A DNA stretch of 38,365 nt from a virus. Taxonomy: Duplodnaviria; Heunggongvirae; Uroviricota; Caudoviricetes. Numbering within the stretch: position 1 is the first letter of the stretch; every line of letters begins with the position of its first letter. The stretch spans positions 1 through 38,365 of the IMG/VR virus record IMGVR_UViG_2778261245_000001; one strand, 5' to 3'. Made by a program: the position numbers and the translations under genes. Below, piece by piece: positions 9,338 to 38,365 of the stretch. The notes below the pieces were generated by a model. That model saw only the letters and a program-made list of their open reading frames with translations, made no database searches and was not told the DNA's origin.

Positions 9338-9356
9338 GACGGCCATATTGGCCGTC
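9338..9356. terminator. Bidirectional hairpin terminator between Q and the convergent cassette
   Basis: Perfect hairpin GACGGCCA-TAT-TGGCCGTC with AT-rich flanks on both sides; overlaps the stop codon of the 9355-10542 gene. Confidence 0.55.
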
Positions 9357-10542
9357 AGCTAAATAAATATGTAATAGCATAAGGCGTAAGTAAAAAGTAG
9401 AATCTAAATGTAAGATATAAGCCACATAAAACTATAATTCCTAATGAGGCAAAAACAACTTTCTGAACAAGCAATCTTGTGGTTAAACTATCAAATGTAT
9501 CCTTTATATCTTCGTAAATAGCCTTGAAGTTATATTCTGCTTGTTGTTTTTTATGATTTAACTCATCATTTATTGCTGTTAAAGTTTGCCATTGATTAAA
9601 TAGAACAAATAGAATCATAATAGTGAAGAACAATGCACCCAACACTACAGCTGTGTTTATTAATGCTTGACTATCCCAACCATTAGCCTGCTTCATTTGA
9701 GTCGCAACGATAATTGTTGCGACGGGGATACCTAATATCTGATTTTGTATGTCACTGAATACTTTATGTATTTTCCCCATCTCTTCTATTTTGGCTACTC
9801 GTAACTGATCCAGTATTTTCTCGTAAGAAAAACCAGAAACGAATACTTTGTATCCTTTTTGATAACTTTCATAAAGTTGTCCTAAATCCCTTAACATGAA
9901 GGAAAAAGAGGTTTCTTTAGTTTTAGATTCACATGATGATTTTATACTACTTGCTAAAATAGTAAGTTTTTGATCTTTATGCGTATCTTCTGCAAAGTTT
10001 GCGATCAAATTATGAATCAGATCTCCATTAACATTCATAAGATCATCGCTAGAATAATTTACTGGAATTTTTAGTACGTTGGATTCGACGAATACCAATT
10101 CAAAATTTGTTTCATCTAAATAAGCAGAACAATCTTTGAATAAAGTAATTAAGCTCAAAACATCTCTGTACTTGGATATAATAGCAGGCGACTTTTTATC
10201 CCTGTTGTGATAATTAAGTTCGATTATAAAGAAGTTACTGGCTTCCTTTATCCTATTTTTAGGATTTTTTAAATACTCATTAAAAGAGAAATGTAGCTGC
10301 CCCAATCGTAATTTGGGGGGGGTTATATGTAAGGTTATAGTTTGGCCTAACTCAATGTTGCCAGATTCAAGGGTGATGCCAAAATCATGGGGATTCTCTG
10401 TGATATCGTTGATGATGTCACAGAGCTCCTCGTTTGAAAGAATGAGTGATGCTTCAGATAGGGTACCTGCAAATGTAGCGGCCTTGTAAATAGTCACTAA
10501 GTCTTTGAAGGTTCTCTGATTGTTACTGCTCATCCTCTTCAC
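9355..10542 (-). CDS. Hypothetical protein with large N-terminal soluble domain and C-terminal two-helix transmembrane hairpin (cassette gene B)
   Basis: 395 aa, AT-rich codon usage; hydrophobic segments ALINTAVVLGALFFTIMILFVLF and VVFASLGIIVLCGLYLTFRFYFLL near the C-terminus; start overlaps upstream gene stop (GAGGATGAG); ATG at 10533 is an alternative start. Confidence 0.6.
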   Translation of the reverse strand: MKRMSSNNQRTFKDLVTIYKAATFAGTLSEASLILSNEELCDIINDITENPHDFGITLESGNIELGQTITLHITPPKLRLGQLHFSFNEYLKNPKNRIKEASNFFIIELNYHNRDKKSPAIISKYRDVLSLITLFKDCSAYLDETNFELVFVESNVLKIPVNYSSDDLMNVNGDLIHNLIANFAEDTHKDQKLTILASSIKSSCESKTKETSFSFMLRDLGQLYESYQKGYKVFVSGFSYEKILDQLRVAKIEEMGKIHKVFSDIQNQILGIPVATIIVATQMKQANGWDSQALINTAVVLGALFFTIMILFVLFNQWQTLTAINDELNHKKQQAEYNFKAIYEDIKDTFDSLTTRLLVQKVVFASLGIIVLCGLYLTFRFYFLLTPYAITYLFS

Positions 10543-11557
10543 CTAATTCTGATAAAATCTCTGATCTTAGCGTATCCGGAATCTCGGTAAGTATCAATTT
10601 ATCGTTTTCTGAATCATAAAGAACGCTGCCATCATGCAAGGCCGCACGCTCGAATTTCAGAGACCAATGTTTGGACTTTCCTTTGAAACTAACAAGCCCA
10701 CGTATAACGTTGCCATCAGGCACGAACCCATCAGAGAACTCCAGATCGTCATTGGTTAACTTTTCAACTAACAACTCAGGAGCAGTTGGCCATATCTCGT
10801 TTGCAAAAATTTGAGTGTCGAAAGTTTCACCAGAACGATTTAAATTTTTTAATTTTTCATGAGCCTTATTTAGGAACTCTTCACGTGCCTCTGGTTCAAA
10901 ACCTCTTTCAGTAGCAAATTCTAAAAGTGCATTCCGTAATTTTGTTGTTTCTTGTTTGGCAATTAGAATATCGTTGCAACCTAAAAACTTTTTGAAATAA
11001 CCTGCTACTGAATTTTGCCCCTTTAGAAAGCTAATATATCTCTCTTTGCCATTCTGGCGCCCAGTTAAGTCAATTCGTCCCGCTACTCGAAGTTTAGCAA
11101 TGTCTAGATATTCACTTTCTTGAATTTCAAAATCGTGGACTGAAGAGCCAACTGCTGATGTTAGGATTGCAACCATCAAATAATGATTTCCATTTACCTC
11201 ATTATGGGCAATTATTACATAACCACCAGTAGACATTGATTCATCATCGGCTCTGGCTTTTAAATGATTGATCATTCGGATACTAGTATCATAAAAACTA
11301 TGTGTTTTATTTACGAAATAATCATCAACGATATTACCCATAGGGTAACTATCGCGGTCATCTTCAAATTTCCCATATCCTTTACCTGCTCTCCCAGAGT
11401 ACCTTTCAGTAAGTGCGTTAGAGAGGTCTTTTGATGCTTGCTGAACAGGTTTTTCTGAAGGACAAGGAATAATGGTGGCTAACCCCTGTTGTTCCTTGTT
11501 CATAATGTGAACAATAAACTTATGAGTGATATTAGTGGGGGTCGCTGATGCAGTCAT
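10523..11557 (-). CDS. YejK/NdpA-family nucleoid-associated protein homolog (cassette gene A)
   Basis: 344 aa; similarity to E. coli YejK along the whole length as recalled: N-terminal ITHKFIVHIMNKEQQ (YejK INQIALHQLIKRDEQ), central YLDIAKLRVAGRIDLT...RYISFLKG...FLG (YejK YLDINHADIVARIDLT...RYLTFLKG...FLG), C-terminal KLILTEIPDTLRSEI (YejK TLTIKGTPPNLRDQL); AAGGA RBS upstream. Confidence 0.65.
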   Translation of the reverse strand: MTASATPTNITHKFIVHIMNKEQQGLATIIPCPSEKPVQQASKDLSNALTERYSGRAGKGYGKFEDDRDSYPMGNIVDDYFVNKTHSFYDTSIRMINHLKARADDESMSTGGYVIIAHNEVNGNHYLMVAILTSAVGSSVHDFEIQESEYLDIAKLRVAGRIDLTGRQNGKERYISFLKGQNSVAGYFKKFLGCNDILIAKQETTKLRNALLEFATERGFEPEAREEFLNKAHEKLKNLNRSGETFDTQIFANEIWPTAPELLVEKLTNDDLEFSDGFVPDGNVIRGLVSFKGKSKHWSLKFERAALHDGSVLYDSENDKLILTEIPDTLRSEILSELGEEDEQ

Positions 11558-12654: not shown

Positions 12655-13088
12655 GCAGAGTCACCGCGATTATCTCCGCTCTGATTATCTGCATCATCGT
12701 CTGCCTGTCATGGGCTGTTAATCATTACCGTGATAACGCCATCGCCTACAAAGAGCAGCGCGATAAAGCCACATCCATCATCGCTGACATGCAGAAGCGT
12801 CAACGTGATGTAGCAGAACTCGACGCCAGATATACAAAGGAGCTTGCTGATGCTAACGCGACTATCGAAAGTCTCCGTGCTGATGTTTCTGCTGGGCGTA
12901 AGCGCCTGCAAGTCGCCGCCACCTGTGCAAAGTCAACGACCGGAGCCAGCAGCATGGGCGATGGAGAAAGCCCAGGACTTACAGCAGATGCTGAACTCAA
13001 TTATTACCGTCTCCGAAGTGGAATCGACAGGATAACCGCGCAGGTTAACTACCTGCAGGAATACATCAGGACGCAATGCCTTCGATGA
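12651..13088 (+). CDS. Rz: Inner-membrane spanin Rz
   Basis: 145 aa; N-terminus [31 protein letters not shown] matches lambda Rz; coiled-coil body. Confidence 0.9.
12844..13035 (+). CDS. Rz1: Outer-membrane lipoprotein spanin Rz1, embedded in the +1 frame of Rz
   Basis: 63 aa; signal peptide with lipobox-like LGVSAC followed by proline-rich segment, fully nested in Rz as in lambda. Confidence 0.8.
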
Positions 13089-13338
13089 TAGCGATAATTT
13101 TACTCATCATCCTTCACATCTGGCTCTGTAGACAGGGTGGTGCTTACTTCTGGAGCGAATCCAGATTAAACATCTCATTGCTGATGCTTGATATTGAGCA
13201 TCTGGCGCGCGGTAAGGGCTGTGTTGAGATAAGTGCCAGTTCATTACAAAGCTATATCTAATGGAACCTGAAATAATTTGTCATTGTCATGACAAGAAAA
13301 TTCATTAATGATGAGCTCTCATTATACGGGAGGTAGAT

Positions 13339-13587
13339 ATGGCATTTCGTTATTTTGAACTTACCGAAAATATTCCTTTTGAGGATGCAAGAGAGCTTCA
13401 CGTACAGTTCAAACACCACTTAGAATATGTTGTAAAGGCATTATTTATGTTAGGAACACATGAAAAGCATTTAATTGTTGAAGGCCGGGATGACGAATCG
13501 ATAACACAGATATTTGGTGGGCATGATGAAAAGTTTATGCATCTTTATCATATCGATGAATATGAAAAACGTGAAGACTTAATCTAA
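13339..13587 (+). CDS. Hypothetical small protein, 82 aa
   Basis: ORF with GGAGG-like RBS (gggaggtagatATG); preceded by a perfect 12-bp palindrome TTGTCATGACAA at about 13284-13295. Confidence 0.4.
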   Translation: MAFRYFELTENIPFEDARELHVQFKHHLEYVVKALFMLGTHEKHLIVEGRDDESITQIFGGHDEKFMHLYHIDEYEKREDLI

Positions 13588-13702
13588 CCTCCTACGACTG
13601 TTTTTATTGCCATCATAAAAGCCATTCCTTGCAGAGTGGCTTTGATAATGGATATCCCAACAAGCGGATAAGACAATAAATATACCCACCAGGGGATAAA
13701 CA

Positions 13703-13948
13703 ATGTCTAAAATCACGGTTACACCTGCATAGCAGATCCGCTTAAACCTGCTGGCGAAACTGAACTATGACACCGCCGCTGCAGCAGACGCGATTAAGTT
13801 TGTTGGTGACGATCCGTTGAAGTATCAAATCTTTGTGAACCAGTTAAGCTGGGTAATATCTGAAAGCGGGCTGGTAGCCAGAACGACGAAAGCTATCAAA
13901 GAGTCGGAAGACACACTACTGTGGTTTGAAGCTGAATCTGGTTCATAA
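13703..13948 (+). pseudogene. 81-codon reading frame with good RBS interrupted by an in-frame TAG at codon 10 (13730-13732)
   Basis: AGGGGA RBS 7 nt upstream of ATG 13703; frame reads MSKITVTPA-TAG-QIRLNLLAKLNYDTAAAADAIKFVGDDPLKYQIFVNQLSWVISESGLVARTTKAIKESEDTLLWFEAESGS, stopping at TAA 13946-13948 directly before the next gene. Confidence 0.4.
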
Positions 13949-13996
13949 GTGAATGAATGTGGTAATTTAATCCTCCGCAAAAAAAAGGGGATAAAA

Positions 13997-14218
13997 ATGC
14001 TAAAGAATGTCATAGCTATTTTACCGGGTGACGCGTTTGATCATGTTGTTGTCCAGGACGACCTGGAGATTGTTACCTTCAGGGGTGACAAGGGCGGCGT
14101 GCTTACTATGCCTATCGAGGAGTACGAACTAGACGGGATAAGTTATAACGTCGCACGTTGTGACGGTATGGTCACTGACGAAAAAGTTGAGAAGGCTATC
14201 AGACACTTCACCAAGTAA
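13997..14218 (+). CDS. Hypothetical small protein, 73 aa
   Basis: ATG with AAAGGGGA RBS; ORF track lists a GTG-extended version from 13949; followed by a strong terminator. Confidence 0.45.
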   Translation: MLKNVIAILPGDAFDHVVVQDDLEIVTFRGDKGGVLTMPIEEYELDGISYNVARCDGMVTDEKVEKAIRHFTK

Positions 14219-14235
14219 TAATCAGCTTCCGAACC

Positions 14236-14260
14236 AAGCCTCGCAATAGCGAGGCTTTTT
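14236..14260 (+). terminator. Rho-independent terminator
   Basis: AAGCCTCGC-AATA-GCGAGGCTT followed by TTT. Confidence 0.75.
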
Positions 14261-14272
14261 AACGACAGAGGT

Positions 14273-14467
14273 ATGACAGTGGTTCTTACAGCTAAGCAGT
14301 TTGAAGACCTTGCATCCTTCGCGAAGGAAGATAGCCAGCCTCAATACACCATCGCAACCGGAATAATCCCAGAATTCGAAGATGATTGTGAGTTTATCCC
14401 CGTTTATGCCGGGCTCATCGCTTATTTAGAGTTACTGAATCACGGTGTATTGCAACTCGACCACTAG
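14273..14467 (+). CDS. Hypothetical small acidic protein, 64 aa
   Basis: ORF between two terminator-bounded units; no family recognised. Confidence 0.35.
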   Translation: MTVVLTAKQFEDLASFAKEDSQPQYTIATGIIPEFEDDCEFIPVYAGLIAYLELLNHGVLQLDH

Positions 14468-14541
14468 CGACATTACGCCAAGTATTCATCAAGTGCCTAG
14501 TTTAATGTTAAATTATTCCCTCATTCATAAAAGGGAATGTT

Positions 14542-14943
14542 ATGAAAATAGATCACGAGTATTTGAAAGGTCTTTTGGAAGCTTTCGAGGCGTCTGAAGA
14601 GCCGCATACTGATATAAAGCAGCTGCAGCTGGCTGGGTATGACTACAGCACCGATGAATTTTTATTCCATATGCGTTTATTGGCTGATCGTCAACTAATT
14701 GCTAGAACAGACGGCAAGTATGGGTTTGGTTTCTCTGAGGCTGCTGATGGAGGATCATGGTTCGTTATACCGTTACGATTAACTTCAAGCGGTCATGACT
14801 TCCTTGAAGCTCTCAGGAATAAAGAGGTTTGGAATTCTCTCAAGACCGGCTTTAAAGATGCAAGCATTGGAACATTAGTTGACGTTTCAAGGCGTTTGCT
14901 GGATGGTTATATTCAGAAAAAAATTGACGACTTAATTGGCTAA
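14542..14943 (+). CDS. DUF2513-like prophage protein (winged-helix-like), 133 aa
   Basis: N-terminus MKIDHEYLKGLLEAFEASEE resembles the DUF2513 family as recalled; own terminator downstream. Confidence 0.45.
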   Translation: MKIDHEYLKGLLEAFEASEEPHTDIKQLQLAGYDYSTDEFLFHMRLLADRQLIARTDGKYGFGFSEAADGGSWFVIPLRLTSSGHDFLEALRNKEVWNSLKTGFKDASIGTLVDVSRRLLDGYIQKKIDDLIG

Positions 14944-14960
14944 TATTTTATATAACCATC

Positions 14961-14986
14961 AGCCCCGCAATCGCGGGGCTTTTTTA
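14961..14986 (+). terminator. Rho-independent terminator
   Basis: AGCCCCGC-AATC-GCGGGGCT followed by TTTTT; stem-loop design almost the same as the terminator at 14236-14260. Confidence 0.75.
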
Positions 14987-15077
14987 TTGCCATTATGATG
15001 GCAGATATATTGCTATGGCGTAACAGGATTTCAACTATGAACCCAACAGAAGCAGCTACATCACCGAAGGACGGATA

Positions 15078-15428
15078 ATGCCACCACGCACACCAAAAGC
15101 CTGCCGTGTTCGCGGGTGCCGCCATACCACCACTGACCCGTCAGGTTATTGCGAAAGCCACAAAAGCGAAGGCTGGAAGCAATACAAGCCAGGACAATCC
15201 CGTCATCAGCGCGGCTACGGTTCGAAGTGGGATGTTATCCGCGCGCGTGTGCTGAAGCGTGACAAAGGTTTATGTCAGTTATGTCTGCGTGCCGGTGTGG
15301 TGCGTGAGGCGAAAACCGTTGACCACATCATCCCTAAAGCGCATGGCGGCACTGATGCCGACAGCAATCTGCAGAGCCTGTGCTGGCCGTGTCATAAGGC
15401 GAAGACGGCCCGTGAACGGTTGAAGTAA
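15078..15428 (+). CDS. HNH endonuclease (packaging-associated, HK97 gp74-like position)
   Basis: 116 aa; Cys-rich N-terminus and C..C...DHIIP...H.....NLQSLCWPCH HNH motif; sits directly upstream of terminase small subunit. Confidence 0.85.
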   Translation: MPPRTPKACRVRGCRHTTTDPSGYCESHKSEGWKQYKPGQSRHQRGYGSKWDVIRARVLKRDKGLCQLCLRAGVVREAKTVDHIIPKAHGGTDADSNLQSLCWPCHKAKTARERLK

Positions 15429-27139: not shown

Positions 27140-27586
27140 TTACTGTGCGAACACGCAATTTCGGCCTGATGGGGAGCCGACAATTCTGGACATTTTTTCG
27201 CAAATAACAGTTACTTGTTCTCCTTTTTTAAGAGCAGCAGCTGTTGATTTTTCAGAGTCTTGCATCTCCATTCTTGCTGGCATGAATTCATTTTCAGTTC
27301 TGAATTTAATAATTATAGAGTCAGTAAAGTCCTTATCAATGGATTGTACGATACCTCTAACGGCGATTAATTTACCTTTTAACTGTTCATCGGTAGCGAC
27401 TTCATTTTCTTCATACTCTTTAAACAGCTGTCGAGCAGTAGTGTTGTAGATTTCTTTTTGCGGTGCCGCAGCTTCCGTATCGGATGAGTATGAAGAATTA
27501 GAGCCTTTATCGTTATTGCCTGCAAAATATCCAATAATCACCAACCCGATGAAAATATATAAAATCCATTTTAATAATTTCTTCAT
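27140..27586 (-). CDS. Membrane-anchored or secreted OB-fold protein (tRNA_anti-like family), accessory gene on opposite strand
   Basis: 148 aa, AT-rich; N-terminal hydrophobic helix KWILYIFIGLVIIGYFAG; motif YEENEVATDEQLKGKLIAVRGIVQSIDKD...KKGEQVTVICE fits the OB-fold pattern of that family as recalled. Confidence 0.55.
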   Translation of the reverse strand: MKKLLKWILYIFIGLVIIGYFAGNNDKGSNSSYSSDTEAAAPQKEIYNTTARQLFKEYEENEVATDEQLKGKLIAVRGIVQSIDKDFTDSIIIKFRTENEFMPARMEMQDSEKSTAAALKKGEQVTVICEKMSRIVGSPSGRNCVFAQ

Positions 27587-27696: not shown

Positions 27697-29025
27697 ATGA
27701 CGTGGAAAGACAGGCTTCAGGATGCGTCATTTCGCAGCGTGCCGTTTAAGGTTGAAGAAGAAAGTGCGGGAACCGGTCGCCGTGTGGAAACACATGAATA
27801 CCCGAACCGCGACAAGCCCTATACCGAAGATCTGGGAAAAGTCACTTTCCGCCCGTCCATCACAGCTTATGTGGTGGGAGATGACTGCTTTGACCAGCGC
27901 GATCGCCTGATTGAAGCGCTGAATAAACCCGGTCCCGGCACACTTGTCCACCCGACATATGGTGAGCTGAAAGTCTGTGTTGACGGGGAAGTTCGGGTCA
28001 GCACATCGAAAAGTGAAGGGCGTATTGTCCGCTTTGACCTGAAGTTTGTCGAAGCAGGAGAACTCTCTTACCCCACATCAGGTGCGGCGACGGCGCAGAC
28101 GCTGATGTCATCCTGTTCTGCACTGGATGACTGCATCAGTGACAGCTTCAGCGGTTTCAGTATCGATGGTGTGGCGGATTTCGTGCAGAACGACGTTATC
28201 GGTAATGCCAGCACAATGCTTGGGTATGTTTCTGATGCGATGAAAGTGGTGGATTCTGCCGTATCGGATGCCGCCAGGCTGTTGCAGGGGGATATCTCGG
28301 TACTTCTGCCGCCGCCATCCTCAGGCAAAAATTTCGTTGAGCAGGTGCAGAAAATGTGGCGTACCGGGAAACGCCTTTATGGTAACGCCAGCGACCTGGT
28401 CACCATGATCAAAACGCTTTCCGGTGTCAGCCTCGGCAGCGATCTGCAACCGCGCGGCGTCTGGAAAACGGACAGTAAAACCACCGCCACGGCGACGCAG
28501 CAGCGTAACGTGGTTGCCAGCACCCTTCGTACGACCGCAATCAGCGAAGCGGCGTATGCCGTCACCCGATTGCCTGCGCCAACAACTTCCGCGGTGATGC
28601 AGAATTCCGCAGTGGGGCAGGCAACAACACCCGCGCAGAGCACTGGCTGGCCTTCCGTCACGCATCCGGCACTGAACAATGCACCGGCGGTGAAAAACAC
28701 GGTTGACCTGCCAACGTGGGAAGAACTGACCGACATTCGCGACACACTGAATACGGCAATTGATAAGGAGTTGTCCCGTACAACCAGTGATGCGCTGTTT
28801 CTGGCGCTGCGCCGGGTGAAAGCAGATCTGAATGCGGATATCAACACGCGCCTTGAACAGTCTGCACGGATCATTCAGCGCACACCGGATGAGGTTTTAC
28901 CCGCGCTGGTGCTGGCGGCGACCTGGTTTGATAACGCGGCGCGTGACGCGGACATTATCCGGCGTAATGCCATTACGCATCCCGGCTTTGTGCCGGTGAT
29001 CCCTCTGAAGGTGCCAGTGCAATGA
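27697..29025 (+). CDS. Mu gpN-like DNA circularisation / tail protein
   Basis: About 442 aa from ATG 27697; first gene after tape measure in Mu-type baseplate block. Confidence 0.75.
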   Translation: MTWKDRLQDASFRSVPFKVEEESAGTGRRVETHEYPNRDKPYTEDLGKVTFRPSITAYVVGDDCFDQRDRLIEALNKPGPGTLVHPTYGELKVCVDGEVRVSTSKSEGRIVRFDLKFVEAGELSYPTSGAATAQTLMSSCSALDDCISDSFSGFSIDGVADFVQNDVIGNASTMLGYVSDAMKVVDSAVSDAARLLQGDISVLLPPPSSGKNFVEQVQKMWRTGKRLYGNASDLVTMIKTLSGVSLGSDLQPRGVWKTDSKTTATATQQRNVVASTLRTTAISEAAYAVTRLPAPTTSAVMQNSAVGQATTPAQSTGWPSVTHPALNNAPAVKNTVDLPTWEELTDIRDTLNTAIDKELSRTTSDALFLALRRVKADLNADINTRLEQSARIIQRTPDEVLPALVLAATWFDNAARDADIIRRNAITHPGFVPVIPLKVPVQ

Positions 29026-30101
29026 ACGACAATGTCACGCTACGGGTAAATGGCCGGGAGTGGAATGGCTGGACATCGGTGCGCATCGGTGCCGGTATTG
29101 AACGGCTGGCGCGGGATTTCAGTGTGGAGATCACTCGCCAGTGGCCGGGAGATGAGGGTATCACCACGCTTCAGCCGCGCATTAAAAACGGTTCAAAAGT
29201 GGAAGTGCTGATTGGTGATGAGCTGGTGATCACCGGCTGGGTGGAGGCGACTCCCGTTCGTTACGATGCCCGTTCGGTCAGCACCGGTATTGCCGGACGT
29301 AGTCTGACGGCTGACCTGATTGACTGTGCAGCCGAACCGACACAGTTTAACGGACGCTCGCTGGTGCAGATTGCGCAGGCGCTTGCTGCGCCTTTCGGCA
29401 TTGAGGTGGTGAACAGCGGTGCGCCATCGGGTGTTATTCCTGATGTTCAGCCTGATCACGGTGAAACGGTGATTGAGGTAATCAACAAAATACTCGGTCA
29501 GCAGCAGGCGCTGGCTTACGACGACCCGCACGGCAGGCTGGTGATTGGCGGTATTGGCTCAACGCGGGCACATACCGTGCTGGTACTTGGGGAAAACATC
29601 CTTTCCTGTGATACGGAGAAGAGTATCCGGGAGCGGTTTTCTGTTTACCAGGTGGCGGGGCAGCGTGCCGGAAACGACGATGATTTCGGTGAGGCCACCA
29701 CCACCGCGCTGCGGGCCCGCACAGAGGACGCATTTATTGCCCGTTACCGTCCGATGTATATCAGGCAGACAGGGCAGGCCACGGGGGCAGGTTGTATTGC
29801 GCGTGCTGACTTTGAAGCCCGACAACGGGCGGCGCGGACGGATGAAACCACCTATGTGGTGCAGGGCTGGCGACAGGGTAACGGTACGCTGTGGCAGCCC
29901 AACCAGCGGGTGATTGTCTTCGATCCGGTCTGTGGTTTCGACAATACCGAACTGCTTGTCTCGGAAGTCACGTTTACTCAGTACCAGAACGGCACCCTGA
30001 CGGAAATCCGTGTCGGCCCACCTGATGCTTATCTGCCTGAACCCGAAGCCCCCGGCGCGCGGAAAAAGAAAAAAGCCAGAGTACAGGAGGACCCGTTCTG
30101 A
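29022..30101 (+). CDS. Mu gpP-like baseplate hub protein
   Basis: 359 aa, position in Mu-type order. Confidence 0.75.
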   Translation: MNDNVTLRVNGREWNGWTSVRIGAGIERLARDFSVEITRQWPGDEGITTLQPRIKNGSKVEVLIGDELVITGWVEATPVRYDARSVSTGIAGRSLTADLIDCAAEPTQFNGRSLVQIAQALAAPFGIEVVNSGAPSGVIPDVQPDHGETVIEVINKILGQQQALAYDDPHGRLVIGGIGSTRAHTVLVLGENILSCDTEKSIRERFSVYQVAGQRAGNDDDFGEATTTALRARTEDAFIARYRPMYIRQTGQATGAGCIARADFEARQRAARTDETTYVVQGWRQGNGTLWQPNQRVIVFDPVCGFDNTELLVSEVTFTQYQNGTLTEIRVGPPDAYLPEPEAPGARKKKKARVQEDPF

Positions 30102-30649
30102 TGAGGACGATTGAAGCCATGCAGCGACAACTCCTCGGCCTGATTGGGCGGGCCGTGGTGAAAAGCATCAGTGCCGCCACGAAATGTCAGACCGTGGATG
30201 TGTCCCTGATTGCCGGTGAACCCAAAGCCGGGGTTGAACATCTTGAACCCTACGGTTTTACCGCAAGGGCAAACAGCGGTGCGGAAGCGGTGGTGTTGTT
30301 TCCGGATGGAGACCGTTCTCATGCGGTGGTTGTTACGGTGTCGGACCGTCGCTACCGCCTGAAAGGGCTGCAGACTGGGGAGGTGGCTGTCTATGACGAT
30401 CAGGGGCAGTCCGTGACGCTGACCCGGGAGGGGATCGTGGTGGACGGTGCAGGTAAAACGATCACGTTTCGCAATGCGCCTAAGGCACGTTTTGAAATGG
30501 ACCTGGAAGTGACAGGACAGGTGAAAGACCTGTGCGACTCCAGCGGCACCACCATGTCAGCGATGCGGCTTGCCTATAACGGGCATCGTCACAGAGAGAA
30601 CGGTCAGGGCAGTAACACCGACAAACCTGATAAAGCGATGGAGGCATGA
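30101..30649 (+). CDS. Baseplate spike/assembly protein (Mu gp45-like, V-type)
   Basis: 182 aa, position in Mu-type order. Confidence 0.65.
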   Translation: MRTIEAMQRQLLGLIGRAVVKSISAATKCQTVDVSLIAGEPKAGVEHLEPYGFTARANSGAEAVVLFPDGDRSHAVVVTVSDRRYRLKGLQTGEVAVYDDQGQSVTLTREGIVVDGAGKTITFRNAPKARFEMDLEVTGQVKDLCDSSGTTMSAMRLAYNGHRHRENGQGSNTDKPDKAMEA

Positions 30650-31074
30650 TGGAACTGTGGCTGACGGTGAACGGTAAACGCACCTGCGCCAGCGCACCGC
30701 TGGATCCGCTGACCCGCGCCGTGGTGATTTCCCTGTTTACCTGGCGGCGGGCGGAGCCTGATGACAACGCCGGCGTCCCGATGGGATGGTGGGGGGATAC
30801 CTGGCCTGCGGTACAGAATGACCGTTACGGCTCCCGACTGTGGCTGCTTCAGCGCAGCAAACTGACCAATCAGCTGGTGCAGACGGTAAGGGGGTATATC
30901 CGCGAATGCCTGCAATGGATGATTGATGATGGCGTGGTGTCCCGTATTGATCTGGATATCCGCCGCACCGGGATTAATGAACTGGGTAACAGTATCACTC
31001 TCTGGCGTCGTGACGGACCGGTAATGATTTCTTTTGATGATCTGTGGAGTGCGATAACGCATGGCGGACAGTGA
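30646..31074 (+). CDS. Mu gp46-like baseplate protein
   Basis: 142 aa, position in Mu-type order. Confidence 0.65.
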   Translation: MMELWLTVNGKRTCASAPLDPLTRAVVISLFTWRRAEPDDNAGVPMGWWGDTWPAVQNDRYGSRLWLLQRSKLTNQLVQTVRGYIRECLQWMIDDGVVSRIDLDIRRTGINELGNSITLWRRDGPVMISFDDLWSAITHGGQ

Positions 31075-32119
31075 ATTTCAGCGCCCGACGCTGGCAGAAA
31101 ATATCAGTATGCTCCGTAACGATTTATTCGCCTGGCTGGACGTCAGCGACACGCTCCGGCGCATGGATGAAGACGTGCGGGCAAAGGTGTATGCGGCGGC
31201 GCTGCATACGGTTTACGGGTACATCGATTATCTGGCAATGAACATGCTGCCTGACTTGTGCGATGAGTCCTGGCTGGCGCGACATGCTGCGATGAAACGA
31301 TGTCCGCGCAAGGGGGCCACGGCTGCCAGCGGGTATATGCGCTGGGAAGGTGTCAGCGATGGCCTGAAGGTGACCGCCGGGAGTGTTATTCAGCGCGATG
31401 ACCTGGTGCAGTACACGGCAACTGCCGATGCAACCAGCTCCGGTGGTGTCCTGCGCGTGCCGATCGCCTGCTCAAGTGCAGGCGCGGTCGGTAACGCTGA
31501 CGACGGTACGTCATTAATCCTGGTCACGCCGGTGAATGGTCTGCCGTCTTCCGGCGTGGCAGATACACTGACAGGTGGATTTGATACTGAAGAGCTGGAA
31601 ACGTGGCGCGCCCGCGTCATTGAGCGGTATTACTGGACGCCTCAGGGCGGGGCTGACGGGGACTATGTCGTCTGGGCTAAAGAAGTTCCCGGCATTACCC
31701 GCGCATGGACATACCGACACTGGATGGGAACGGGGACTGTCGGTGTGATGATTGCCAGCAGCGACCTGATTAATCCCATTCCGGAAGAATCAACGGAAAC
31801 GGCGGCAAGGCTGCATATCGAGCCACTGGCCCCGGTGGCAGGCTCTGATTTGTATGTGTTCAGGCCGGTGGCACATACGGTGGATTTTCATATCCGTGTG
31901 ACGCCGGACACACCGGAAATACGGGCTGCCATCACCGCGGAGTTGCGTTCGTTCCTGCTGCGTGATGGTTATCCGCAGGGGGAACTGAAGGTATCGCGTA
32001 TCAGTGAGGCGATTTCCGGAGCGAACGGGGAATACAGCCATCAGTTGCTTGCACCGGCAGACAATATCTCCATTGCAAAAAATGAACTGGCGGTACTGGG
32101 GACGATTTCATGGACGTGA
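31061..32119 (+). CDS. Baseplate J-like protein (Mu gp47-like)
   Basis: 352 aa, position in Mu-type order. Confidence 0.75.
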
Positions 32120-32694
32120 CAAACGATGATTACATCCGTCTGTTGTCGGCACTGTTGCCCCCCGGTCCGGCGTGGTCAGCCAGCGATCCGGCGATTGCCG
32201 GTGCGGCACCGTCATTAACCCGCGTTCATCAGCGTGCGGATGCCCTGATGCGGGAGCTGGATCCGCGCACCACCACTGAACTGATAAACCGCTGGGAGCG
32301 TCTGTGCGGTCTGCCGGATGAATGTATTCCCGCAGGGACACAGACCCTTCGCCAGCGTCAGCAACGGCTGGATGCGAAGGTTAACCTGGCGGGCGGCATC
32401 AACGAGAATTTTTATCTTGCACAGCTTGCTGCCCTGGGCAGACCAGACGCTACCATCACGCGATACGACAAAAGCACGTTCACCTGCTCATCGGCCTGTA
32501 CTGACGCGGTGAATGCGCCGGAATGGCGGTATTACTGGCAGGTCAACATGCCAGCCGCCACAAACACCACCTGGATGACATGTGGCGATCCCTGTGATTC
32601 CGCGCTGCGTATCTGGGGCGACACCGTTGTCGAATGTGTGCTTAACAAACTCTGCCCGTCGCATACCTACGTAATTTTTAAATATCCGGAGTAA
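32110..32694 (+). CDS. Mu gp48-like tail protein (DUF2313, e14 YmfQ-like)
   Basis: 194 aa directly upstream of tail fibre gene, as ymfQ in e14. Confidence 0.7.
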
Positions 32695-32697
32695 TCC

Positions 32698-33468
32698 ATG
32701 CATCGTATAGACACGAAAACCGCGCAGAAGGATAAGTTCGGCGCGGGTAAGAACGGTTTTACCCGTGGTAACCCCCAGACTGGCACACCTGCCACCGATC
32801 TCGATGATGACTACTTTGATATGTTGCAGGAGGAGCTTTGCAGCGTGGTGGAGGCATCCGGTGCCAGCCTGGAGAAGGGGCGAAACGACCAGTTGCTTAC
32901 CGCGCTTCGTGCTCTGCTGTTAAGCCGCAAGAATCCGTTTGGTGATATCAAATCGGATGGCACGGTGAAAACGGCTCTCGAAAACCTTGGTTTGGGAGAA
33001 GGCTCTGCATTACCTGTTGGTGTGCCTGTTCCATGGCCTTCAGCCACACCGCCAACAGGCTGGCTGAAATGCAACGGTGCGGCATTTTCTGCTGAAGAAT
33101 ACCCGGAACTGGCAAAGGCTTATCCAACAAATAAATTACCTGATTTACGCGGTGAGTTTATTCGTGGCTGGGATGACGGGCGCGGTATTGATGCAGGACG
33201 TGTTTTATTGAGCATTCAGACAGGGATGCTGGAAAAACACCGCCATATTGTTGTTGCAAATGATGGTTACGACACAAAAGATGAATGGGAACTGGCTACG
33301 ATTTTCAAAAAGACATACACACAAGGACGGGGACTTGATGCCACAAATACAGGAGGGAGTCTGATCCCATCACCGACACTTCATTCACGAGGGAGTATCG
33401 GTAATACTGGCGGGAATGAAACCCGTCCACGAAATATTGCATTTAATTTTATCGTGAGGGCTGCATAA
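32698..33468 (+). CDS. Tail fibre protein: constant N-terminal part fused to the currently expressed variable C-terminal part
   Basis: 256 aa; recombination crossover site lies inside the gene at about codons 93-101 (ALENLGLGE); glycine-rich C-terminal region. Confidence 0.75.
32975..33000. other. Left crossover site of the invertible segment (Hin/Gin/Pin-type 26-bp site)
   Basis: CTCTCGAAAACCTTGGTTTGGGAGAA, imperfect palindrome resembling hix/gix sites; its right half is repeated inverted at 34865-34879. Confidence 0.6.
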
Positions 33469-34070
33469 TGGATAACGCCGTATTAAATAGCGAGCTTATT
33501 GCCACGAAGGCGGGGAATATTACCGTCTATAACTATGATGGTAAAACTCGGGAATATATTTCCACTTCAAATGAATATCTTGCCATTGGTGTCGGTATCC
33601 CTGCATATTCCTGTTTAGATGCCCCTGGCACACATAAGGCGGGTTATGCTATCTGCCGTTCGATGGATTTAAACTCATGGGAATATGTGCCAGATCATCG
33701 CGGTGAAATTGTCTATAGCACCGAAACAGGAGAATCGAAAGAAATCACAGCTCCGGGTGATTATCCTGAAAATACAACCACTATCGCCCCGTTAACGCCA
33801 TACGATGAATGGAATGGTGAGAAATGGGTGACAGATACCGAGGCACAGCACGGCGCAGCAGTAGATGCAGCAGAAGCACAGCGCCAGTCGCTGATTGATA
33901 CTGCAATGGCCTCCATCAGTCTGATTCAACTGAAATTACAGGCCGGACGGAAGCTGACGCAGGCAGAAACAACCCGCCTTAACGCTGTGCTGGATTACAT
34001 TGACGCGGTGACGGCAACAGATACCAGCACAGCGCCGGATGTCATCTGGCCTGAATTGCCGGAGGCGTAG
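33468..34070 (+). CDS. Tail fibre assembly protein (chaperone) for the expressed fibre variant
   Basis: 200 aa; immediately follows fibre gene; C-terminal region similar to that of the opposite-strand paralog (TSTAPDVIWPELP vs TSGAPDIEWPTPP). Confidence 0.7.
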   Translation: MDNAVLNSELIATKAGNITVYNYDGKTREYISTSNEYLAIGVGIPAYSCLDAPGTHKAGYAICRSMDLNSWEYVPDHRGEIVYSTETGESKEITAPGDYPENTTTIAPLTPYDEWNGEKWVTDTEAQHGAAVDAAEAQRQSLIDTAMASISLIQLKLQAGRKLTQAETTRLNAVLDYIDAVTATDTSTAPDVIWPELPEA

Positions 34071-34494
34071 GCCATTCAATATCTGGCGCACCGGAAGTAT
34101 CGATCAGCTCCAGTGCGTCCAGATAATCCAGCCACAAATTATATTGCGCCAGTTCCTCACCTTTCAGACGACCAATAGCGGCTTTACCAGGCCATTGCTT
34201 ACCGTTCATGTATTCGTTAGCCTGGTTAATTAGTAGCTGTCTTTCTGATTCAGTAATTTCAATAAGCTCTTCATGAGTAGGTGGAGGAATATCTGCCCAC
34301 GCAGGTAGTCCATCCTCTCCGGCAATACGGACTTTTCCTTGTGGCGGTTCAGCCATAAACTCACTGACAATATTTTGATTCACCTCCTTAGCATCTGATA
34401 AATCCCATCCTACTGATTTATATTTATCAATCATATCCACAGGGAAAAAAGCATTATGCCTGGCACTATAAACATATTCGTTCATATAAATCAC
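34042..34494 (-). CDS. Alternative tail fibre assembly protein (opposite orientation)
   Basis: 150 aa; paralogous C-terminus to 33468-34070; convergent arrangement typical of invertible fibre cassettes. Confidence 0.7.
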   Translation of the reverse strand: MIYMNEYVYSARHNAFFPVDMIDKYKSVGWDLSDAKEVNQNIVSEFMAEPPQGKVRIAGEDGLPAWADIPPPTHEELIEITESERQLLINQANEYMNGKQWPGKAAIGRLKGEELAQYNLWLDYLDALELIDTSGAPDIEWPTPPAIQAR

Positions 34495-34505
34495 CCTGAA
34501 TAAAA

Positions 34506-34878
34506 TTACTCACCAACAGCCCACCAACTGTAATGCATAGATACCGTGTCACTGGTTGATGACGTTCTGTAAGCAGAATTAAAGCCGGTTAACGTAGGGC
34601 CTTCTGCAGTCATCACGAACCCTCGCCCAGCGCCTAAAGGCGCACCGCCATCACCAGAATGGGTAAGAATGGCGCAGTCCGCTTTTTTAGGGAAAGGGAT
34701 AGGAAATGTAATCCTCATTGTTTGCGTCGATAATTTCGGCATAGCCTCGCCTCGACCATATTGCAGAATTTTACCGTTGGGTAATTTCATCCATCCATCA
34801 CCACTGGCAAAAGAGGCCATGTCCGGTATCTGATTTTCCCCTGTCCCTACATCCCGTTTTGCCGCTTCTCCCAAACCA
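34506..34878 (-). CDS. Alternative variable tail-fibre C-terminal segment (promoterless; expressed only after inversion)
   Basis: Minus-strand ORF whose 5-prime end coincides with the right crossover site (encodes INVGLGE matching the ENLGLGE junction of the expressed fibre); the ORF-track N-terminal extension to 34919 lies outside the segment and is probably not real. Confidence 0.55.
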
Positions 34879-34891
34879 ACGTTTATGAAAA
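34866..34891. other. Right crossover site of the invertible segment
   Basis: Reverse complement reads ...CATAAACGTTGGTTTGGGAGAA, sharing the 15-nt block TTGGTTTGGGAGAAG with the left site in inverted orientation. Confidence 0.6.
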
Positions 34892-34945
34892 TGCAGAAAT
34901 AACGAGCAAATGGCATCATTCCTGCTTTTGTCAGGGGGATCTACC

Positions 34946-35500
34946 ATGCTTATTGGCTATGTACGCGTATCAACAAATGACCAGAACACAGATCTACAAC
35001 GTAATGCGCTGAACTGTGCAGGATGCGAGCTGATTTTTGAAGACAAGATAAGCGGTACAAAGTCCGAAAGGCCGGGACTGAAAAAACTGCTCAGGACATT
35101 ATCGGCAGGTGACACGCTGGTGGTCTGGAAACTGGACCGGCTGGGGCGCAGTATGCGGCATCTTGTCGTGCTGGTGGAGGAGTTGCGCGAACGAGGCATC
35201 AACTTTCGTAGTCTGACGGATTCAATTGATACCAGTACCCCAATGGGGCGCTTTTTCTTTCATGTGATGGGTGCCCTGGCTGAAATGGAGCGTGAACTGA
35301 TTGTTGAAAGAACAAAAGCTGGACTGGAAGCTGCTCGCGCACAGGGACGAATTGGTGGACGTCGTCCCAAACTTACACCAGAACAATGGGAACAGGCCGG
35401 ACGATTAATTGCATCAGGAGTTCCTCGCCAGAAGGTGGCGATTATCTATGATGTTGGTGTGTCAACTTTGTATAAGAGGTTTCCTGCAGGGGATAAATAA
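34946..35500 (+). CDS. pin: Serine DNA invertase (Hin/Gin/Pin family)
   Basis: 184 aa from ATG 34946 with AGGGGGA RBS; MLIGYVRVSTNDQNTDLQRNAL...DTLVVWKLDRLGRSMRHL...GRRPKLT is the resolvase/invertase catalytic and HTH signature; matches PinE as recalled. Confidence 0.9.
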   Translation: MLIGYVRVSTNDQNTDLQRNALNCAGCELIFEDKISGTKSERPGLKKLLRTLSAGDTLVVWKLDRLGRSMRHLVVLVEELRERGINFRSLTDSIDTSTPMGRFFFHVMGALAEMERELIVERTKAGLEAARAQGRIGGRRPKLTPEQWEQAGRLIASGVPRQKVAIIYDVGVSTLYKRFPAGDK

Positions 35501-35606
35501 AGTTAAAGACACTTTTTGTACAAAAGAGAATAAAACAACAGCAACTTGTTGCAATTTTATCAATAAAAGTAGTATTGTCGTGAAAAATTGATTAAAGATT
35601 AATATT

Positions 35607-36440
35607 ATGCATGTTTTTGATAATAATGGAATTGAACTGAAAGCTGAGTGTTCGATAGGTGAAGAGGATGGTGTTTATGGTCTAATCCTTGAGTCGTGGG
35701 GGCCGGGTGACAGAAACAAAGATTACAATATCGCTCTTGATTATATCATTGAACGGTTGGTTGATTCTGGTGTATCCCAAGTCGTAGTATATCTGGCGTC
35801 ATCATCAGTCAGAAAACATATGCATTCTTTGGATGAAAGAAAAATCCATCCTGGTGAATATTTTACTTTGATTGGTAATAGCCCCCGCGATATACGCTTG
35901 AAGATGTGTGGTTATCAGGCTTATTTTAGTCGTACGGGGAGAAAGGAAATTCCTTCCGGCAATAGAACGAAACGAATATTGATAAATGTCCCAGGTATTT
36001 ATAGTGACAGTTTTTGGGCGTCTATAATACGTGGAGAACTATCAGAGCTTTCACAGCCTACAGATGATGAATCGCTTCTGAATATGAGGGTTAGTAAATT
36101 AATTAAGAAAACGTTGAGTCAACCCGAGGGCTCCAGGAAACCAGTTGAGGTAGAAAGACTACAAAAAGTTTATGTCCGAGACCCGATGGTAAAAGCTTGG
36201 ATTTTACAGCAAAGTAAAGGTATATGTGAAAACTGTGGTAAAAATGCTCCGTTTTATTTAAATGATGGAAACCCATATTTGGAAGTGCATCATGTAATTC
36301 CCCTGTCTTCAGGTGGTGCTGATACAACAGATAACTGTGTTGCCCTTTGTCCGAATTGCCATAGAGAATTGCACTATAGTAAAAATGCAAAAGAACTAAT
36401 CGAGATGCTTTACGTTAATATAAACCGATTACAGAAATAA
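35607..36440 (+). CDS. mcrA: McrA-like HNH endonuclease (modified-cytosine restriction)
   Basis: 277 aa, AT-rich; C-terminal CENCGKNAPFYLNDGNPYLEVHHVIPLSSGGADTTDNCVALCPNCH HNH motif; same length and position (after pin, before icd fragment) as mcrA of e14; N-terminus MHVFDNNGIEL as recalled for McrA. Confidence 0.8.
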   Translation: MHVFDNNGIELKAECSIGEEDGVYGLILESWGPGDRNKDYNIALDYIIERLVDSGVSQVVVYLASSSVRKHMHSLDERKIHPGEYFTLIGNSPRDIRLKMCGYQAYFSRTGRKEIPSGNRTKRILINVPGIYSDSFWASIIRGELSELSQPTDDESLLNMRVSKLIKKTLSQPEGSRKPVEVERLQKVYVRDPMVKAWILQQSKGICENCGKNAPFYLNDGNPYLEVHHVIPLSSGGADTTDNCVALCPNCHRELHYSKNAKELIEMLYVNINRLQK

Positions 36441-36673
36441 AATTATTTATTAAAGTCACATTTAAGACGTAATACCCTACAGGGTAAAAATTTTCTCTGA
36501 TCTTAACTTCTGCAAATGTTAACTGCTATTTTTATGCTAAAAATGGTTATCAAAACTCAAAAACACATGTTTATAATCAATGAGTTATAGAAATGCTAAG
36601 GGCTAATGAGTTATATGCAAATTAGTAAAATTATGTTGCTATGTCAAATAGTTACGATTTAGTCATCTAACTA

Positions 36674-36838
36674 ATGTTACGCCATATGGGTTGGACTGAA
36701 GCGGCTGACCTGATTGTTAAAGGTATGGAAGGCGCAATCAATGCCAAGACCGTAACCTATGACTTCGAACGTCTGATGGAAGGCGCTAAACTGCTGAAAT
36801 GTTCAGAGTTTGGTGACGCGATCATCAAGAACATGTAA
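36674..36838 (+). pseudogene. icd: Displaced 3-prime fragment of isocitrate dehydrogenase gene (icdC-like), marking the prophage right junction
   Basis: Encodes (M)[53 protein letters not shown], matching the Icd C-terminus; homology begins abruptly at about 36671 after AT-rich phage DNA. Confidence 0.85.
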
Positions 36839-36861
36839 TCACTACATGTGTTAAATATTTA

Positions 36862-36890
36862 AACGGGCGTATAATACGCCCGTTGTTTTA
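36862..36890 (+). terminator. icd transcription terminator
   Basis: Perfect 10-bp stem AACGGGCGTA / TACGCCCGTT with loop TAA followed by GTTTTATTTAT. Confidence 0.8.
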
Positions 36891-36940
36891 TTTATGTGGA
36901 TATTATTAATAGCATATCGAGCATATTTATATAAAACCTA

Positions 36941-37264
36941 TTACTTGAGCCCATATGGGCATATTTTTATAATACAACTCTTATGCAAACATTTATTTGT
37001 TATTTCGCTTTCTCCTGGAGGACACTCTTGACAGCTTTTGAGTAAACTCCATAAATTCTTGTTGAATGGTGCAATGTTATAAATAGTAATAGGGTATTCT
37101 TTATCCTTAAGGATAATACCAGGCTTAACCGGTGTAAATATACTTCCAGGAGGAAGAAATATAGTAGATTGATACCAGATGATCATTTTCATATCACCCC
37201 ATATGGCTGAAAAAGATATGCCGCATGTAGGTTGAATTACCGTGTCAATTACTACCCACTTCAT
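36941..37264 (-). CDS. iraM: Anti-adaptor protein IraM (RssB inhibitor)
   Basis: 107 aa; [41 protein letters not shown] matches IraM as recalled; position between icd fragment and ycgX as in E. coli K-12. Confidence 0.75.
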
Positions 37265-37722
37265 TTGTTATGTCTTATCCCACGGTATTTAATATAGTTC
37301 ATTTGGATGTTCATTTCTTTATTTTGCATATGAGTATATTACCCTTCAAAAAAAATAAATTAATTAAAACGATTGCTTATATAAAACAAAACTTAAAGCA
37401 AGGAATCTCAATGGATGTTAAACAAAATGAGATTTAGTGAAAACAATAAATTATTCACTTCGTTTTAGATTTGTTTAGCTATAATGTTATACATTCAAAT
37501 GACTGAACATCCTGTAATTAAAACATAGCCTTTATGCTACTTTGTGCCAATTTGCTAAACATTATGGTTGCCTTTTTATATAACGATAATAATGAATATA
37601 AGCATGACATGAGAATAAGGTTTCAATTTTTGAGTTATATAGGAAAGGTTTAACCTGTTCCTGGCTAAAATACATATAACTGGATGATGACTAAACCAAA
37701 ACACATGTGCGTTAAGTATTGA

Positions 37723-37750
37723 AACGGGCGTATGGCACGCCCGTTGGTTT
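37723..37750 (+). terminator. Second copy of the icd-terminator-like hairpin
   Basis: Stem AACGGGCGT / ACGCCCGTT, loop ATGGC, followed by GGTTTTAT; about 55 nt including upstream ACATGTG..TTAA.TATT is roughly 85 percent identical to 36845-36895. Confidence 0.6.
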
Positions 37751-37960
37751 TATAAATATGTTAACCGTTATAAAATAACGTATAGAAAGTCAAGTGATCA
37801 CATTTCAAATATCAATTTGATAGTATTGGCCTGGTGATTATTTATGGGTAGCAATAAAAGGACCGTATTTATCATCCATAGGGATAGTCTCTGTACTTTT
37901 ATTCCCATTATGCTAATGCCTTACTGAATTATGAAGCATTTCTTAAGCATCCAACTTTAG

Positions 37961-38365
37961 CTAGATTAATGGTTTATTATTTTCTACATCTTCAATATAT
38001 AAAAGCGTATTATCAATGGCGTAGTAACTGCGTTTGTTATGATTAACATCAGTAACCCAACGAAAAACGCCCGCGCCTGCCAGTGTTGAACAGTATTCCC
38101 GAAATGTAGATTTTCCGCAAATATGAAGCAATGCGGCCTCTTTTATTTTAGCAGGGTTCTTGATCGTACTAACTTTTAACAGGTTCCTGGTTCCTCTTAA
38201 TAACAAAACCGTGTCATCGTGAGTAATAATTCTGATGTTATCCGTAGCCAGATAATAAATGTAATGTGCAATACGGTGATGTTTTAATTCTGAATAAAAC
38301 CAGGAGAAGTTTTGCTCTTTTCTCACTTGCTCAAACATCTTTTGAAAAACAACGACCTGATCCAT
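37961..38365 (-). CDS. ycgX: YcgX-like protein (DUF1398), host gene
   Basis: 134 aa complete ORF ending at the window edge; length and position after iraM match ycgX of E. coli K-12. Confidence 0.55.
   Translation of the reverse strand: MDQVVVFQKMFEQVRKEQNFSWFYSELKHHRIAHYIYYLATDNIRIITHDDTVLLLRGTRNLLKVSTIKNPAKIKEAALLHICGKSTFREYCSTLAGAGVFRWVTDVNHNKRSYYAIDNTLLYIEDVENNKPLI

Follow-up and report, generated by a model that had tools for sequence, protein, structure and literature searches.

mcrA as the terminal gene of an e14-family prophage at icd

What is the AT-rich gene that stands last in the prophage of IMG/VR record IMGVR_UViG_2778261245_000001, and what would it give to a lysogen? The window analysed in this paper is the whole stretch of 38,365 nucleotides of this virus record (Caudoviricetes), and the gene in question occupies positions 35607-36440. 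The initial annotation had proposed a McrA-type HNH restriction gene, carried as terminal cargo next to the attachment junction. According to the present analysis, 35607-36440 is mcrA (rglA), the last gene of an e14-family temperate prophage integrated in icd, and its product, EcoKMcrA, is a restriction endonuclease of type IV, solitary and modification-dependent; a probability of about 0.95 is assigned to this reading. Both the gene and its location are already known, and nothing about either is new here.

The terminal gene and its protein

The ORF listing of the window gives mcrA as an intact plus-strand frame of 277 codons plus stop, beginning with ATG. Its G+C content is 38.6%, compared to 49.5% in pin and 57.5% in the tail module (28000-33000), and the spacers flanking it have 23.6% on the pin side and 26.6% on the icd side. 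Together with a Pfam HNH match at residues 207-256, this composition agrees with the earlier description of an AT-rich 277-aa gene with a C-terminal HNH motif. The label "McrA-type" proved too modest: the alignment to E. coli McrA that had been suggested as a check gave 277/277 identical residues (100%) with McrA of K-12 MG1655 (b1159, EcoKMcrA), i.e., McrA itself. The two genes differ at only two DNA positions, both synonymous. The best PDB match, 6GHC ("5-methylcytosine-specific restriction enzyme A", E=2.9e-190), is aligned over residues 1-277 with 276/277 identical, and the sole mismatch concerns K198 of the window and MG1655, which is E in the crystallised chain. PDLC03656 (mREase_IV), a PADLOC model of type IV enzymes, likewise spans residues 1-277/277 (E=6.5e-203). 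Such identity to a characterised protein lies far beyond chance. NCBIfam contains no model specific to McrA, and the hits of its scan to IscB, HlpB and PT-DNA restriction models were far under their cut-offs and confined to the HNH domain. An antisense ORF inside the gene (36103-36390, 95 aa) was set aside as a by-product of AT-rich coding; matching genome records name mcrA only.

The features of the locus are as follows:

34946..35500, plus strand: pinE-type serine DNA invertase (Pfam Resolvase, E=1.5e-51, and HTH_7; matching E. coli records name it pinE)
35501..35606, plus strand: AT-rich spacer between pin and mcrA (23.6% G+C)
35607..36035, plus strand: N-terminal NEco domain of mcrA, codons 1-143 (identical to crystallised chains 6R64, 6T21 and 6T22 over residues 1-143)
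36225..36374, plus strand: HNH nuclease core of mcrA, codons 207-256 (Pfam HNH PF01844, E=3.5e-15)
36441..36673, no strand assigned: AT-rich prophage end, 233 bp (a single base differs from the right end of K-12 e14)
36473..36486, plus strand: weak terminator-like hairpin TACCCTACAGGGTA followed by an A/T-rich tail, 33 nt past the mcrA stop (from a consensus scan only)
36674..36838, plus strand: icdC-type fragment, 165 bp, 54 codons (aligns with K-12 icdC; 86.6% to the K-12 icd 3' end)
36862..36884, plus strand: intrinsic terminator-like hairpin past the icd fragment (10-bp stem with 6 G-C pairs, then a T-run; conserved in K-12)
36941..37264, minus strand: iraM, the first chromosomal gene past the prophage (E. 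coli genomes bear an iraM annotation at the matching place)

Similarity to EcoKMcrA extends over the full length, and both parts of the enzyme are found: a NEco domain and an HNH domain with its core cysteines and catalytic histidines. NEco has been defined in PMC7145662 as the domain that reads Y5mCGR or 5hmC without flipping the base. In the HNH core, a residue check found all four catalytic histidines (H228, H229, H252 and H256). PMC6182155 describes cleavage products as absent in vitro for the alanine variants H228A, H229A, H252A and H256A, and reports H228A/H229A as catalytically impaired in restriction tests. The cysteines C207, C210, C248 and C251 are also all present, and by analogy with the HNH family they would act as Zn ligands. 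EcoKMcrA is described as a solitary type IV enzyme whose NEco domain prefers fully modified sites and accepts 5hmC (PMC6182155 and PMC7145662). The locus fits this solitary character, as a cognate methyltransferase partner is absent from it: no methyltransferase ORF was found on either strand of 34946-36838, and mcrA has the pin invertase on one side and the icd fragment on the other. The sequence identity, the domains, the catalytic residues and the position in the genome are all direct observations.

The signals around the gene are modest. Upstream, the spacer 35501-35606 presumably holds the mcrA promoter; it is kept at 93-100% across 22 related loci and is 97% identical to the K-12-type spacer. 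The promoter-like matches inside this spacer are weak (9-of-12 only), and no convincing sigma-70 promoter emerged from the scan of 34800-37400, which gave 11 sites against 9.1 +/- 3.1 in shuffles. Inspection by eye showed no clear Shine-Dalgarno sequence upstream of the mcrA ATG. An Rfam scan of 34500-38365 (E<=0.1) returned only two sub-threshold chance matches (SNORD72 and an L20 leader), with no known RNA element around mcrA.

Downstream, the 233 bp of 36441-36673 are probably one arm of attP. Here AATGAGTTATA occurs twice in exact copies (36579-36589 and 36605-36615, 26 bp apart), and it is enriched relative to shuffles, with 4 matches at <=1 mismatch against 0.57 expected. By conjecture, these repeats may be candidate integrase arm-type sites of attP. 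The icd fragment that follows is annotated as partial isocitrate dehydrogenase in matching records; it is the displaced original icd 3' end, with its 5' edge as the attR junction. The hairpin at 36862-36884 is the native icd terminator, and iraM at 36941-37264 shows where on the E. coli chromosome the prophage lies.

An e14-family prophage of apparently full length

Comparison of the window with the e14 region of K-12 by blastn yielded collinear blocks: int-xis (88.8%), repressor to ymfN (98.6%), a terminase fragment (97.6%), jayE-ymfQ-stf (96.3%, with tfa also matched) and pin-mcrA-icdC-iraM-ycgX (34865-38365, 97.1%). The gene set of e14 is found here as well, comprising intE/xisE, a ymfK-type repressor, ymfL-M, a Mu-like baseplate with ymfQ, and an invertible stf/tfa segment with pinE. 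At the right junction, prophage DNA abuts icdC and then iraM, and the junction base is the same as in K-12. The initial annotation had placed the gene after the invertase and before the icd fragment, at the very site that mcrA occupies in e14. Both statements hold: pin (34946-35500) lies upstream and the 54-codon icd piece (36674-36838) downstream, and the order of pinE, mcrA, the 233-bp spacer, icdC and iraM is literally that of K-12. The pin invertase is the last conserved phage gene ahead of the mcrA cargo, and its ORF can be extended upstream to an ATG at 34910 in the ORF listing.

The K-12 element shares with the window an identical McrA, the same neighbours and the same low G+C, but it is a cryptic, defective remnant of 15.2 kb left by deletion, whereas the window element measures about 36 kb and bears head, tail and lysis genes. 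Lysis, terminase, portal, capsid, sheath, tube, tape-measure and baseplate genes of the window have been lost from K-12 e14, and the ORF lengths in the window agree with the annotated genes of intact relatives. These two findings imply that the window holds an apparently full-length e14-family prophage. By the same sequence comparison, K-12 e14 is an element of this kind that has undergone deletion.

Other full-size members of the family exist. Both Escherichia phage vB_EcoM-689R6 (ON470584.1), whose McrA is 98.6% identical to that of the window, and an e14-like prophage of E. coli KE58 have mcrA directly behind the invertase gene; of the right-hand 20 kb of the window, 86% is matched by KE58, with an identity of 97.3%. 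These two and similar strains differ from the window in mosaic early and cargo regions. Among complete E. coli genomes, none covers >=80% of the left-hand 20 kb.

At the left end, int lies at 403-1533 on the minus strand; only some 400 bp of the window extend past it, and icd and attL are outside the window. The first 402 positions begin in a 111-aa HTH_29/HTH_28 ORF (minus strand, 4-336) that resembles the first ORF of an insertion sequence. With icd and attL outside the window, the left arm may be interrupted, or may bear other cargo. Near the opposite end, the Pin-invertible tail-fibre segment (32980-34920) stands in the orientation opposite to that of K-12 e14; 33418-34197 matches K-12 tfaE in reverse, so that in the window it is the tfaE-type pair that occupies the expressed strand.

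Several other regions of the prophage also deserve mention. A very AT-rich island (9355-11557, minus strand, 32-39% G+C) separates the late-regulator region from the lysis genes and contains two overlapping ORFs. One of them encodes a nucleoid-associated protein of the NA37/YejK type, 344 aa long (Pfam PF04245, E=8e-69); the other, of 395 aa with hydrophobic C-terminal segments, had no match in Pfam or PADLOC. This pair could be a second moron or a defence pair. Between the tape-measure and DNA-circulation genes, and on the strand opposite to them, a 148-aa OB-fold gene (27140-27586, minus strand; tRNA_anti-like, PF12869) is present. It is shared with one relative (L004) and absent from an O157-type relative (L005), which indicates an insertion inside the tail operon. 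Finally, an AT-rich stretch of about 40% G+C (13000-15000) separates the Rz-like lysis gene from the HNH/terminase genes; it includes a 133-aa DUF2513 protein (14542-14943), as well as small ORFs of 82 and 89 aa that gave no matches.

The slot after pin and the distribution of mcrA

In prophages that share the head, tail and pin module with the window at about 97% identity, the match to the window ends at the end of pin. Strain OkiPb01716 has hypothetical genes and a TrlF-family AAA-like ATPase after pin, and an O157:H7-type relative has a LEM-3-like GIY-YIG protein. The variability of the slot is thus directly observed, and the suggestion that the right arm serves for cargo gains support, in the few cases examined, from the different genes that relatives bear there. 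In the window this slot, bounded by the pin invertase and the attachment site, is occupied by mcrA as a moron of low G+C. A wider proposal is that the slot from pin to attR in e14-family temperate phages, which combine a Mu-like tail with a lambdoid early region, is a general, swappable hotspot of defence cargo, and that the mcrA of this apparently intact element could still be passed on through lysogenic conversion. The slot contains mcrA in the window and a TrlF-like AAA ATPase in OkiPb01716, and the O157:H7 relatives have a LEM-3-like GIY-YIG nuclease there. This proposal is offered tentatively, at a little under even odds.

Of 5,426 complete E. coli genomes, 340 have the gene, and every copy is chromosomal; many of these genomes are K-12 laboratory derivatives, and 321 of the 340 copies are at least 99% identical. 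In the phage collection, vB_EcoM-689R6 is the one record with an invertase followed by McrA. The order and spacing of pin, spacer, mcrA, spacer and icd fragment are invariant in 22 loci from Escherichia, Shigella and IMG/VR. Nucleotide identity in these loci is 98.8-100% for mcrA, 87.6-100% for pin and 85-100% for the icd fragment, so mcrA is conserved at least as well as its two neighbours. Its ORF is intact in 22 of 23 such loci. The exception is IMGVR_UViG_2617271049_000013 (L029, 2294-4131), where mcrA has suffered a frameshift and truncation and an acyltransferase-like membrane protein of 349 aa, on the opposite strand, takes the place of most of pin.

In Shigella flexneri SFBU0723 (CP182557.1; loci L006 and L007), two blocks of mcrA, spacer, icd fragment and iraM lie about 49 kb apart across the record start. 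The pin genes of the two are unlike, with 99.1% and 87.6% identity to the window pin. This double block could derive from duplication or from tandem prophages.

A more distant relative is found in Buttiauxella sp. (L010, 4001-4834), which has a full-length orthologue of 277 aa with 75% identity. It differs in its surroundings: pin, the icd fragment and tail genes do not adjoin it, and it lies in a non-phage chromosomal island near pepT. In this metagenome-assembled genome, the orthologue is flanked by an unrelated ORF of 194 aa and by one of 287 aa, and an unrelated 298-aa ORF on the opposite strand is nearby.

Predicted restriction and its role in the lysogen

The proposed mechanism follows published work on the identical K-12 protein (PMC6182155 and PMC7145662). 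EcoKMcrA dimerises via its C-terminal HNH domains to form one joint channel for DNA binding and cleavage. Each NEco domain independently binds Y5mCGR, methylated or hydroxymethylated and best with both strands modified, leaving the base unflipped, and the HNH site then cuts the DNA. A lysogen is consequently predicted to restrict CpG-type methylated DNA (e.g., DNA modified by M.HpaII) and T-even phage with non-glucosylated 5hmC. Dcm sites (C5mCWGG) are not targets of EcoKMcrA according to PMC6182155 and PMC7145662, and therefore the host would be safe. In vitro cleavage by EcoKMcrA is described in PMC6182155 as weak and only moderately dependent on methylation. Expression of the gene and a restriction phenotype in this strain are expected from protein identity; by the same reasoning, and in line with PMC6182155 and PMC7145662, the McrA of the window would restrict Y5mCGR/5hmC DNA in vivo. 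The gene would travel with the prophage and be lost on its excision.

The architecture resembles that of other modification-dependent nucleases. ScoMcrA of Streptomyces coelicolor (PDB 5ZMM) and the SRA-HNH and EVE-HNH enzymes (TagI, VcaM4I) also join an N-terminal modification sensor to a dimerising C-terminal HNH domain, and 5ZMM matches the HNH region of the window protein over residues 183-275 (E=7.2e-11). However, the sensors are unrelated: NEco works without base flipping, and SRA, EVE and SBD are other folds. ScoMcrA additionally restricts phosphorothioated DNA, as stated in PMC6182155.

Which role this activity would serve in nature is a further question. The main natural role could be a barrier against CpG-methylated DNA, either of the vertebrate host or of mobile elements with foreign cytosine methyltransferases, instead of a defence against phages. 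The Y5mCGR specificity includes CpG, full-length orthologues are reported mainly from commensals and pathogens of vertebrates, and a barrier to host DNA has been proposed (PMC6182155 and PMC7145662). On the other hand, rglA was originally defined by restriction of non-glucosylated 5hmC phage (PMC6182155), and carriage of mcrA by a phage fits superinfection exclusion. A primacy of the CpG role is considered unlikely, at roughly three chances in ten. One role does not exclude the other, and both would use an identical biochemical mechanism.

A much less probable alternative is that mcrA, while intact, is effectively silent in the lysogen, a remnant of the attachment arm that confers no restriction. 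The promoter signal not above background, the lack of a clear ribosome-binding site by eye and the decayed copy in L029, which shows that the gene can decay in nature, are what this alternative draws on. Yet an identical gene behind a spacer of 97% identity gives the classical McrA+/RglA+ phenotype in K-12 (PMC6182155), and this phenotype disappears once e14 is excised: excision leads to an McrA- phenotype and icd is restored from icdC (PMC4444293). The preservation of the ORF in all but one of the 23 loci, with 98.8-100% nucleotide identity among intact copies, also argues against silence, which is regarded as very improbable. A generic phage HNH endonuclease for packaging or homing, to which weak matches of the HNH domain alone to IscB, group II intron maturase and pyocin nucleases might point, is refuted by the full-length McrA identity including the modification-reading NEco domain, and the packaging-type HNH is a separate 116-aa gene (15078-15428) beside the small terminase subunit.

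For EcoKMcrA as the terminal product of this prophage, the significance beyond correct annotation is slight. The predicted restriction of CpG-type methylated or 5hmC DNA would be useful to know before transforming the strain or cloning methyltransferase genes in it. Moreover, mcrA confirms membership in the e14 family and places the right end of the element, with its attR junction, at single-base precision. The McrA of K-12 is now seen on a full-size prophage, at a place where relatives hold other nuclease or ATPase genes, and its position at the prophage end fits a known pattern of defence genes. If the tentative hotspot proposal is true, mcrA here could still be mobile by lysogenic conversion, whereas in K-12 it is a fossil.
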